DNA from: Escherichia coli
Lineage (GTDB): Bacteria; Pseudomonadota; Gammaproteobacteria; Enterobacterales; Enterobacteriaceae
Length of the DNA stretch: 1,086 nt
Direction: 5' to 3' (one strand)
Assembly (NCBI RefSeq): GCF_003334815.1
Contig: NZ_QOWO01000107.1
Part shown: positions 1 to 1,086 of the stretch, piece after piece
Numbering within the stretch: position 1 is the stretch's first letter
How the letters are laid out: the number at the start of each line of letters is the position of its first letter
Position numbers and translations under genes: made by a program
The notes under the pieces: generated by a model
The model's input: only the letters and a program-made list of their open reading frames with translations
Told to the model about the DNA's origin: nothing
Databases searched by the model: none

Positions 1-68
1 TTCGCCAGGAACGACCGGAACGCGGCATCATGCGGCGTGGGCGTTGTGGTGTTTTTCTTCTTACTCAC
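1..68 (-). CDS. hypothetical protein, 5' end only (continues past the left window edge); N-terminus MSKKKNTTTPTPHDAAFRSFLA...
   Basis: GTG start at 68..66 preceded by GGAGG (77..73) with a 4-nt spacer; the start overlaps the TGA stop (67..65) of the upstream gene as GTGA; frame stays open to the window edge (22 codons); the initiation region and first ~19 codons are homologous to the start of the 65..580 gene. Not in the ORF track because it is truncated by the window. Confidence 0.5.
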   Translation of the reverse strand, partial: MSKKKNTTTPTPHDAAFRSFLA

Positions 69-77
69 GGTTCCTCC
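51..77. repeat. 27-bp direct repeat, copy 1 (gtttttcttcttactcacggttcctcc); on the minus strand this is the SD plus GTG start of the 1..68 gene
   Basis: 25 of 27 nt identical to 563-589; weaker homology continues into both downstream coding regions. Confidence 0.8.
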
Positions 78-580
78 ATCAAATCAGCAGCATCGCAGCA
101 ATCATCGTCCAAATCCCCACAACCAAGAGGACAGCAATTGCGATCAAAGCCGTGACAACAATAGCCACGTTCTGCGTCACGGCGTATTTCTTCTGCAATC
201 TCTTCAGCGGAAAGGTAATCAAACTCCTCACGGGCCAGTTCCAGGACCAGCAGATGTTGTTCTGTCGGCAATGTAGACACAAAATTATCAATAGCAGCAC
301 TCAAACGTCGCTGATATAGCTCATAAACAAGACCACAACGGTGCATTAGTTCTTCGGATAATAGTTCCAGTTTTGAGCGAACGCTGTCAGCATTGAAAGT
401 GACTTCATCAGATGACATCTGAAAATCTTTGTCAGTGTCAAAACAAGACTTCATTTTTATCTCCTGCCCGTCCGGGCCCTGAATGAAAGAAAACCTGTTT
501 CCCTTCTCTGTTTTTTTATGGAACAGGAGGAATCCGGTACCATGCGACATAGACGTCATGATGTTTTTCATCTTGCTCAC
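65..580 (-). CDS. hypothetical acidic protein, 171 aa from GTG at 580 (alternative internal ATG at 454 would give 129 aa); Cys-rich C-terminal tail GYCCHGFDRNCCPLGCGDLDDDCCDAADLMEEP; no family recognised
   Basis: Long open frame (part of the 65..676 track ORF); GGAGG at 589..585 then 4 nt then GTG at 580..578; this initiation region is duplicated at the next gene; CTG/GAA/CGT-rich codon usage; roughly 34 Asp+Glu against 19 Lys+Arg by my count; stop TGA at 67..65. The track start at 676 is rejected: it has no SD and overlaps the upstream gene. Confidence 0.6.
   Translation of the reverse strand: MSKMKNIMTSMSHGTGFLLFHKKTEKGNRFSFIQGPDGQEIKMKSCFDTDKDFQMSSDEVTFNADSVRSKLELLSEELMHRCGLVYELYQRRLSAAIDNFVSTLPTEQHLLVLELAREEFDYLSAEEIAEEIRRDAERGYCCHGFDRNCCPLGCGDLDDDCCDAADLMEEP
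73..77 (-). promoter_or_regulatory. Shine-Dalgarno (GGAGG) for the 1..68 gene, embedded in the last codons (M-E-E-P) of the upstream gene
   Basis: GGAGG then AACC then GTG, with the GTG overlapping the upstream TGA as GTGA. Confidence 0.55.
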
Positions 581-644: not shown

Positions 645-911
645 TCAGTGGCAGACCCGTTCAATTTCAAGCGCACGGAGCAGGTGCCCCCACTCGCTGA
701 CTTTCATGGCGGGGATACGCACCCGCTTCCGCTCACTGCAGCGTCTGGCGATATGACCGCCCATCGCCAGGACGTCCGGGTTAATCTCATCCGGTGCCAG
801 TTCCTGGCGTCTGAAGCGGGTATGGCGGTGCAGGGGTTTGTTCTCCCGCAGGCACTCTTCACGCAGACGCTTTACATATTCAGCCGTTGCAAAGATAATT
901 GATGGTCTCAT
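645..911 (-). CDS. hypothetical small basic protein, 88 aa (MRPSIIFATAEYVKRLREECLRENKPLHRHTRFRRQ...ERVCH); Arg-rich, possibly nucleic-acid binding; identity unknown
   Basis: ATG at 911..909 preceded by GGAG (923..920) with an 8-nt spacer; stop TGA at 647..645; Leu codons are CTG-dominated on this strand (6 of 8) versus CTC-dominated on the mirror plus-strand ORF; about 15 Arg + 4 Lys against 12 Asp/Glu. The track extends this ORF to 1007 (120 aa), but the extension crosses the terminator hairpin and uses rare AGG/ATA/CGG codons. Confidence 0.5.
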   Translation of the reverse strand: MRPSIIFATAEYVKRLREECLRENKPLHRHTRFRRQELAPDEINPDVLAMGGHIARRCSERKRVRIPAMKVSEWGHLLRALEIERVCH

Positions 912-919
912 GGCATAAT
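911..919 (+). promoter_or_regulatory. candidate extended -10 element (TGgCATAAT) on the plus strand
   Basis: TG at 911-912, one nt, then CATAAT at 914-919 (5/6 match to TATAAT); no convincing -35. A transcript from about 926 would end at the 979-1004 terminator. Sequence pattern only. Confidence 0.2.
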
Positions 920-923
920 CTCC
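920..923 (-). promoter_or_regulatory. Shine-Dalgarno (GGAG) for the 645..911 gene
   Basis: GGAG then 8 nt then ATG at 911..909. Confidence 0.45.
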
Positions 924-942
924 ATAGTTCGTGAATGAGATG

Positions 943-969
943 CCGGACTTCCGTACGGGGAAGCGCCGG
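943..969. promoter_or_regulatory. imperfect palindrome / inverted repeat upstream of the small basic gene; candidate operator or RNA stem
   Basis: CCGG-a-CTTCC-GTACGG-GGAAG-cg-CCGG: outer CCGG (943-946 / 966-969) and inner CTTCC (948-952) / GGAAG (959-963) arms around a GTAC core; lies 32-68 bp upstream of the ATG at 911. Confidence 0.3.
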
Positions 970-978
970 CAGAGAAAG

Positions 979-1004
979 GCAGGGTTTATCGCCCTGCTTT
1001 TTTT
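979..1004 (+). terminator. intrinsic (rho-independent) terminator hairpin, strongest on the plus strand; possibly bidirectional
   Basis: Stem GCAGGG (979-984) / CCCTGC (992-997), 7-nt loop TTTATCG, then T7 run (998-1004); an A-rich tract upstream (973-977) could extend the stem. On the minus strand the same hairpin is followed by the weaker tract CTTTCTCT. Confidence 0.6.
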
Positions 1005-1086
1005 CATTCCGGACAGCGACGCAGTGCCAGCGCGAGCGCTTTCATCTTCCAGCCTTCCGGCGTGCGGTACATCACCTTCCAGTAGC
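1004..1086 (-). CDS. 3' end of an unidentified gene entering from the right edge (C-terminus ...YWKVMYRTPEGWKMKALALALRRCPE, stop TGA at 1006..1004)
   Basis: Frame open from the window edge to the TGA, with CTG/GCG/CGT/CGC/CCG/GAA codons; stop is followed immediately by a hairpin. Not in the ORF track because the start lies outside the window. Only 27 codons are visible, so support is limited. Confidence 0.35.
   Translation of the reverse strand, partial: YWKVMYRTPEGWKMKALALALRRCPE

Follow-up and report, generated by a model that had tools for sequence, protein, structure and literature searches.

The annotated plasmid leading-region gene ygdA, its mirror open reading frame and a predicted AS-pc01-type antisense RNA

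Organization of the locus

The DNA considered here (hereafter the window) is a stretch of 1,086 nt from an Escherichia coli assembly (GCF_003334815.1, contig NZ_QOWO01000107.1), in which positions 645–911 are open on both strands. The minus-strand open reading frame (ORF) extends from 911 to 645 (88 aa plus stop) and corresponds to a gene that is already annotated, ygdA; the plus-strand ORF extends from a GTG start at 648 to 902 (84 aa plus stop). A sequence-only reading of this DNA had given exactly these extents. The analyses presented below make it probable that the interval contains a single protein gene, ygdA on the minus strand, that the plus-strand ORF is a shadow of that gene and that the plus strand carries a predicted antisense RNA of the AS-pc01 type. 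The features of the window are as follows.

645–911, minus strand: ygdA coding sequence (CDS), 88 aa, with its TGA stop at 647..645; RefSeq WP_001247861.1, YgdA/YdfB/YdaB family
648–902, plus strand: mirror (shadow) ORF of 84 codons, non-coding according to substitution pattern, codon usage and chance resampling
871–899, plus strand: predicted sigma-70-type promoter matching 10 of 12 consensus positions (−35 TTTACA at 871–876, 17-nt spacer, −10 GATAAT at 894–899)
906–1004, plus strand: predicted cis-antisense small RNA (sRNA) of about 99 nt, AS-pc01-like, from Rfam alignment, covariance model and folding
941–971, plus strand: central hairpin of the predicted fold, with a GCCGG...CCGGC outer stem and an inner 5-bp stem
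979–1004, plus strand: intrinsic terminator read from the sequence, a G+C-rich stem–loop (979–997) followed by seven T residues (998–1004)
up to 68, minus strand: 5′ end of ygdB, an Rpn-family gene (RefSeq locus)
454..65, minus strand: gene for a 129-aa hypothetical protein (RefSeq locus)
1004–1086, minus strand: 3′ end of ygcA (RefSeq WP_000218850.1), whose stop (1006..1004) overlaps an ATG at 1007 as ATGA

Four genes therefore touch the window, all of them on the minus strand. The window is 100% identical to many conjugative plasmids of E. coli and Salmonella belonging to the IncI1/B/O/K/Z group. In the RefSeq plasmid pE2863-1 it is situated within the leading region, with nikB, nikA and oriT on one side and ardA, psiA, psiB and a parB-like gene on the other. 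One IncI1 record gives 911..645 the name ygdA, and AlphaFold DB calls its product YgdA or YdfB. The gene sits between oriT/nikA and ardA-psiA-psiB and shares their strand; in RefSeq, the intact CDSs from a gene for a 74-aa protein through ardA, psiA, psiB and parB all have the orientation of ygdA.

The mirror ORF opposite ygdA

The geometry described in the sequence-only reading was accurate. The two ORFs lie in codon-aligned antisense frames, i.e. they read identical triplets in opposite directions. A Shine–Dalgarno (SD) sequence, GGAG, is found at 920..923, 8 nt upstream of the ygdA ATG at 911, and AGGGGG is located 6 nt 5′ of the GTG at 648. The compositional differences noted at that time were reproduced as well: leucine is encoded by six CTG, one CTC and one CTT codons in the minus frame and by five CTC, two CTT and one CTG in the plus frame, and the plus-strand translation contains seven Phe and six Gln residues.

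The plus-strand ORF appears gene-like because it spans 96% of ygdA and possesses a start codon and a purine-rich motif. It is open because all eight Leu codons and two of the three Ser codons of the minus frame avoid TTA, CTA and TCA, and its stop is the exact mirror of the TCA codon for Ser4 of ygdA. The frequency with which such a frame arises by chance was estimated by resampling the synonymous codons of the minus-strand protein in 20,000 trials, weighted according to the codons that 12 neighbouring genes use. In 42% of these resamplings, the result included a mirror ORF 84 or more codons long. Fully open mirror frames are also present opposite ygcA (145 codons, longer than the plus-strand ORF considered here) and opposite the gene for the 74-aa protein. 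It is apparent that the mirror ORF opposite ygdA represents no more than the chance expectation.

Like the shadow ORFs usually found opposite real bacterial genes, the plus-strand ORF shares its triplets with a real gene and is open since stop codons are the reverse complements of TTA, CTA and TCA, which are rare codons here. Its Phe- and Gln-rich composition and its CTC leucine codons mirror the Glu, Leu and Lys codons of ygdA, and no substantive difference from ordinary shadow ORFs was observed. Scans of both translations and of the protein family alignment described below against Pfam, NCBIfam, PHROGs and PADLOC returned nothing significant; a match of one member of that alignment to HU-CCDC81 (1.3e–4) was treated as noise.

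Identification of the coding strand

The sequence-only reading had regarded the coding strand as ambiguous while preferring the minus strand. The competing possibility is that the plus-strand ORF is a true gene, or that both strands code, and that the terminator at 979–1004 ends a plus-strand mRNA. The 84 open codons preceded by AGGGGG are in agreement with this possibility, as is the position of the terminator, 77 nt downstream of the ORF. The frame is, moreover, open in all nine of the intact IncI-type alleles that were compared.

Those nine ygdA alleles, obtained from plasmids and assemblies, have 84–100% amino acid identity, and ratios of nonsynonymous to synonymous divergence (dN/dS) were determined for them in both frames by the method of Nei and Gojobori. 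Three other sequences (P0013, P0028 and P0040; 62–84% identity) were considered as diverged orthologues but rejected, being alleles that carry compensated −1/−2 frameshifts, and were excluded from the dN/dS calculations. Among the nine alleles, 53 columns are variable, of which 12, 6 and 35 fall at the first, second and third codon positions, respectively, of the minus frame (binomial p about 1e–6). The 35 third-position sites are the first codon positions of the plus frame, a pattern that argues against translation of the latter. The corresponding dN/dS values are 0.03–0.16 for the minus frame and 1.4 to infinity for the plus frame. The comparison of substitution patterns that the sequence-only reading had suggested thus reveals constraint in the minus frame and not in the plus frame. 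Between the same pairs of plasmids, synonymous divergence (dS) is 0.16–0.61 in ygdA and 0–0.18 in the adjacent ygcA. As dS is not lower in ygdA than in ygcA, nothing indicates that synonymous sites are held back by a second frame, as dual coding would require.

Codon usage leads to the same conclusion: the log-likelihood ratio of real-gene to mirror-frame usage is +15.3 bits for the minus-strand ORF and −14.0 bits for the plus-strand ORF. Protein searches with both translations, also suggested earlier, distinguish the two strands clearly. The minus-strand protein yielded 66 matches at E≤1e–3 in an exhaustive search of representative sequences; many of these are near-identical alleles or fragments, but the remainder include full-length proteins of approximately 80–90 aa with 35–59% identity. 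The plus-strand translation retrieved nine near-identical entries and nothing else, mostly gene calls on short contigs, indicating that these matches reflect identity at the DNA level. In a homologue with 59% identity (locus L017) the plus frame contains two internal stops, and it is interrupted in 31 of 38 distinct genes of the wider family. A pattern scan of the window identified no promoter-like site 5′ of 648 on the plus strand. Purifying selection in the plus frame and retention of the second ORF in diverged homologues, both to be expected of dual coding, were not observed. With an open mirror frame also expected by chance as often as the resamplings indicate, a coding function for the plus-strand ORF, alone or together with ygdA, is very improbable.

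Taken together, dN/dS, codon usage, homologues and annotation all support the minus strand, as the sequence-only reading had preferred, and the minus-strand coding assignment of 645–911 is secure; the supposed ambiguity was not a real one. The same reading had noted that the plus-strand ORF is followed by a strong terminator. The terminator is indeed present downstream, but it is predicted to end an antisense sRNA rather than the ORF.

The YgdA protein and its family

YgdA (alias YdfB) is an 88-aa basic, helical protein of the YgdA/YdfB/YdaB family, encoded in the leading regions, which are transferred first, of enterobacterial conjugative and mobilizable plasmids. It is 100% identical to an AlphaFold DB entry named YgdA and 98% identical to one named YdfB. 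Family members share the motifs VRIPAM and WGxxLRxLExxRA, of the general form V-R/H-I/V-P-A-M/L ... G-x-x-L-R-x-L-E-x-x-R. Across 29 aligned sequences, L78, R79 and E82 do not vary, and V64, P67, A68, G75, L81 and R85 are retained in 90% or more of them. An AlphaFold2 model calculated with the family alignment as input contains three helices, with a mean predicted local distance difference test (pLDDT) score of 88. The helices are amphipathic, and codons 2–88 specify 15 Arg, 4 Lys and 10 Glu residues. When this model was compared using Foldseek with the AlphaFold DB entries named YgdA, YdfB and YdaB, E values ranged from 5e–12 to 1e–4. YdaB of IncF plasmids was retrieved by way of a homologue, P0073, which is 46% identical to YgdA and 44–45% identical to YdaB. 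The window protein thus matches YdaB (IncF) and YgdA/YdfB (IncI) in size, motifs and genomic position. Library searches with YgdA itself placed it in no Pfam, NCBIfam or PHROGs family, and structure searches returned no neighbour that was informative.

The family is present in at least 5,000 plasmid records, including those of major antibiotic-resistance plasmid types. Its genomic context in IncF and MOBP plasmids is comparable to that described above. The family members that were checked are always situated in the leading region, on the strand shared by anti-restriction, psi, ssb and methylase genes, with ardA, klcA, psiB and ssb as neighbours. Leading-region families with anti-defence, methylase, single-stranded DNA-binding protein and toxin–antitoxin functions have been reported to be oriented for transcription from the transferred strand (PMC11541004; PMC12672017), and the orientation of the YgdA family agrees with that arrangement (PMC11541004).

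Some gene callers use a longer, 120-aa version of the ORF (1007..645). This candidate was rejected: only 3 of 30 family loci have the upstream start in frame with no intervening stop, and spacer indels of 1–2 nt shift the frame among IncI alleles. The apparent extension originates in a conserved sequence, ATGAAAAAAGC(A/G)GG at 1004–1007, which combines the upstream TGA stop, the overlapping ATG, an A-tract and the 5′ arm of the terminator. It leads gene callers to extended versions of 104–120 aa that start with MKKA or MKKS (P0002, P0071, P0080 and P0097).

Alleles that carry deletions were also encountered. Those in L011 (3001–3264), L012 (100–363) and L014 (241–504) each have −1 and −2 deletions at separate places, which put YgdA residues from about 24 to 57 in another frame before the C-terminus is restored. 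These alleles could be sequencing or assembly errors, or could reflect real tolerance or decay of the central segment. A single leading region may also contain two family paralogues that have diverged from each other, as in L021 (at about 4998 and 7166) and L027 (two copies); each of them has its own antisense element.

A predicted antisense RNA over the ygdA initiation region

The pattern scan of the window detected a single sigma-70-like site. It is situated within codons 5–14 of ygdA, on the opposite strand, and is directed at the hairpin at 979–1004. A transcript initiated from this predicted promoter would start near 906 and end within 979–1004, giving an RNA of about 99 nt. Such an RNA is perfectly complementary to codons 1–2 of ygdA, its start codon, its SD sequence and its entire 5′ untranslated region (UTR), and its predicted fold has a free energy of −43 kcal/mol (z=−4.3). 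The predicted start near 906 lies downstream of the plus-strand ORF stop at 902, and the terminator has an explanation other than that ORF: from the arrangement of these elements, it is most probably the end of a short antisense sRNA and not of the mRNA of the plus-strand ORF.

The candidate RNA has a known relative. In a permissive scan, positions 906–1002 of the plus strand align to all 99 positions of the Rfam family RF02875, AS-pc01, which bears the title 'Antisense to pHK01_035' and refers to a gene, presumably a YdaB homologue, of the IncFII plasmid pHK01. RF02875 is found above its threshold (91–110 bits) in the IncF loci L019, L020, L023, L028 and L037, where the matches lie exactly antisense to the first codons, SD sequence and 5′ UTR of YdaB homologues. 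In L019 and L020 they begin 5–8 nt inside the YdaB CDS; in the window, the predicted element begins at about 906 and the ygdA ATG is at 911. Like AS-pc01, the window element is about 99 nt in length, has three hairpins and lies opposite the 5′ end of a YdaB-family gene. Both have the SD complement CUCC in the 5′ hairpin, a GCCG/CGGC central hairpin and a terminator of the form GCAGGG...CCCUGC-U(n). They differ in that the window sequence is diverged, belongs to IncI1/K/B/O rather than IncF plasmids and has a transcript that is predicted only. An RT-PCR (reverse-transcription PCR) assay for AS-pc01 has been reported to be positive on cDNA from E. coli outer-membrane vesicles (PMC12370729). On the evidence of sequence comparison, the predicted antisense RNA is the IncI-type counterpart of the IncF AS-pc01.

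The element was then followed through the wider family. A degenerate DNA pattern of the protein motif was the sole means by which 32 further genome loci were retrieved, and all 32 proved to be genuine family members. A first covariance model, built from IncI-type seeds only, located antisense partners at the start of 25 of 39 family genes. A second-round model produced 41 matches at E≤1.2e–5 in a search of 291 kb. Every intact family gene checked had one opposite it, and only two additional, marginal matches appeared; window positions 903–1004 score 86 bits with this model. In the resulting 41-sequence alignment, 88% of the cells are paired, as compared with 31–52% in slid controls. Compensatory double changes were observed in 14 of 19 pairs (142 double-change cells against 57±5 in shuffles), comprising 10 of the 11 pairs of helices 1 and 2 and 4 of the 8 pairs of the terminator stem. 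A structure shared between IncF-type and IncI-type sequences, with covariation, is therefore found in this alignment, which is itself fitted to the model.

The predicted promoter and terminator are likewise retained. A promoter with an exact 17-nt spacer is present upstream of the antisense match in all 39 loci examined and scores at least 9 of 12 in 34 of them, as compared with 2.8% of shuffles. The −35 element takes the form TTTACA or TGGACA and the −10 element the form xAxAAT. Among 10 IncI-type alleles, including that with 59% identity, both hexamers are invariant while seven spacer positions vary. The T-run on the antisense strand is kept throughout the family (mean of 5.0 T in the 6 nt after the stem), whereas the tail on the sense strand is U-poor (mean 2.6 of 8). 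Most family members retain CUCC, the complement of the ygdA SD sequence GGAG, in the antisense element.

Two further observations concern this region. The hexamers of the antisense promoter coincide with ygdA codons 5–6 and 12–14, which specify the N-terminal residues that vary least in the protein family (consensus SII...VK); at least 90% of sequences share I5 and V13. In a subfamily with YVQ in place of YVK, the −35 hexamer reads TGGACA. In loci L008, L009 and L010 (IncK/I-gamma group), in the homologues of 903–935, a GTG start replaces ATG, and a 25-nt stretch over the SD region and the 5′ hairpin of the sRNA is rewritten, CACAAATATTTCTCCTTATG being present where the others have CATGGCATAATCTCCATAG. 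The antisense promoter and terminator are unchanged in these loci despite the rewritten SD region.

Possible function of the antisense RNA

The antisense RNA, if made, would pair with the translation-initiation region of ygdA. As it is fully complementary to that region, it is likely that it would block translation and/or trigger duplex-dependent cleavage, the mechanism of other antisense RNAs that cover an initiation region. The gene order relative to oriT, considered together with the reported orientation of leading-region genes (PMC11541004), implies that the plus strand of the window is the transferred strand. In that case the antisense RNA would have no template until the complementary strand had been synthesized, and YgdA might be made early after entry and then silenced, i.e. 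early-on and late-off.

The same hairpins could, alternatively, function in the sense mRNA or in transferred single-stranded DNA, the antisense promoter being incidental. They might control ygdA translation from the 5′ UTR, act as a terminator or attenuator of ygcA, or constitute a single-strand initiation or promoter-like site. Complementary hairpins are indeed predicted in the minus-strand RNA (−33.9 kcal/mol, z=−3.1), the pattern scan lists 997..979 as terminator-like on the minus strand, and leading regions, of which the plus strand would be the transferred strand here, use single-stranded DNA hairpins (PMC12672017). On the other hand, it is only on the plus strand that a T-run follows the hairpin throughout the family, with the U-poor sense tail described above, and the promoter with the 17-nt spacer stands at the right distance in every one of the 39 loci. 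Rfam, furthermore, lists AS-pc01 as an antisense RNA gene, for which the RT-PCR assay cited above was positive. The hairpins are also short (6–11 bp) and do not rebuild −35 and −10 boxes as in single-stranded DNA promoters of the Frpo type (PMC12672017). A function confined to the sense mRNA or to single-stranded DNA is accordingly considered unlikely.

In pairs of the SymE/SymR type, a small ORF likewise has its start codon and SD sequence covered by an antisense RNA. The window element may be compared with the pairs FinP/traJ, Sok/hok-mok and SymR/symE. Like the RNAs of those pairs, it is short and structured, has a predicted constitutive promoter and an intrinsic terminator and is fully complementary to the SD sequence and start codon of its target. 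It differs in that the target is a small, soluble, basic protein and in that the antisense promoter is inside the first 14 codons of the target. No match to the Rfam models for FinP, Sok, hok or related RNAs was found in the window.

These comparisons bear on the suggestion that ygdA and its antisense RNA form a type I toxin–antitoxin (addiction) pair rather than a simple timer. The layout, as noted, resembles that of SymE/SymR pairs; loci of the hok/sok type occur in leading regions (a sok match was found in L021); and truncated or frameshifted alleles could reflect counter-selection of a toxic product, although these frameshifts may be sequencing errors. YgdA, however, is basic, predicted to be soluble and helical and without a hydrophobic segment, in contrast to the membrane toxins of the Hok type, and has no PADLOC, Pfam or NCBIfam match. 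An addiction pair is thus doubtful, and slightly more so than a function of the hairpins in the sense strand.

A more general possibility, offered tentatively, is that ygdA/ydaB and the AS-pc01-like RNA constitute a conserved two-strand leading-region module, either a switch-off of an early 'zygotic' gene or an addiction pair of the SymE/SymR kind. Such a module would confine YgdA synthesis to the first minutes after entry, before duplex formation allows antisense transcription. The placement of the antisense promoter within the first 14 codons may also explain in part the conservation of the N-terminal SII...VK sequence.

Several considerations weigh against the interpretation of the plus strand as encoding an antisense regulator of ygdA. 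With RF02875, the window element reaches 15.5 bits (E=1.5 on 181 nt) where the gathering score is 79, and is consequently not called by Rfam; at the gathering threshold, no match was obtained in L001, L013 or L017. The covariation was measured on an alignment fitted to the model and so biased towards the structure. The overlap of the promoter hexamers with conserved codons (SII and VK/VQ) means that their conservation could be due in part to protein constraint, and constraint at the protein and promoter levels cannot be separated here at 871–899. A test of the folding strand from counts of G-U and A-C pairs (30 versus 23) did not discriminate, so that the hairpins could equally act in ygdA mRNA or single-stranded DNA. 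Many ygdA alleles in the databases are truncated or frameshifted, suggesting that the gene may be dispensable. Finally, the antisense transcript of the IncI-type locus is a prediction from sequence, and we infer both the repression mechanism and the timer from the arrangement of the elements.

Neighbouring sequences

The sequences that flank ygdA present some features of their own. A direct repeat of 70 nt (76% identity) occupies window positions 8–77 and 520–589; on the minus strand, both copies contain GGAGGAACC-GTG followed by N-terminal codons of the Rpn-family gene ygdB. The gene for the 129-aa protein is found in only a subset of otherwise collinear plasmids, and in those that lack it (L005–L010 and L013) ygdB begins about 64 nt after ygdA. 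The repeat and the position of ygdB in these plasmids give the 129-aa gene the appearance of a cassette, inserted or recombined at the 5′ end of ygdB, with a putative relic of the ygdB start at about 530–590. The body of the 129-aa protein (65–454, minus strand) is acidic, and its C-terminus, CCHGFDRNCCPLGCGDLDDDCC, is rich in Cys. Its best NCBIfam match was not significant (E value 0.22), no PHROGs match was found, and the label 'cobalamin biosynthesis protein CbiX' given to this gene in some GenBank records looks like a mis-annotation. The product of ygcA (144 aa; L001 7004–7438) is termed 'post-segregation killing protein PndC' in some GenBank records and 'hypothetical protein' in RefSeq. 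A second direct repeat, of 25 nt (76% identity; 221–245 and 783–807), links the 129-aa gene with ygdA and is probably fortuitous.

Relation to previous descriptions and significance

The minus-strand gene was annotated previously, the shadow ORF is an ordinary one and the antisense element belongs, in diverged form, to a known Rfam family, whose title already records AS-pc01 as antisense to a pHK01 gene. Antisense control of YdaB or YgdA was not mentioned in the literature covered by a limited search, which did not extend to the original description of the pHK01 sRNA.

The annotated minus-strand gene is correct, and the fact that its mirror ORF is predictable from codon usage is a caution against the annotation of such ORFs. 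The terminator that follows the mirror ORF leads instead to a predicted cis-antisense sRNA on IncI-type plasmids that is missed by current Rfam thresholds and that appears to accompany every gene of the family that was checked. Genes of plasmid leading regions are currently being investigated as factors of establishment and anti-defence that are expressed early, and a conserved antisense brake on one of them would, if true, be relevant to that work.

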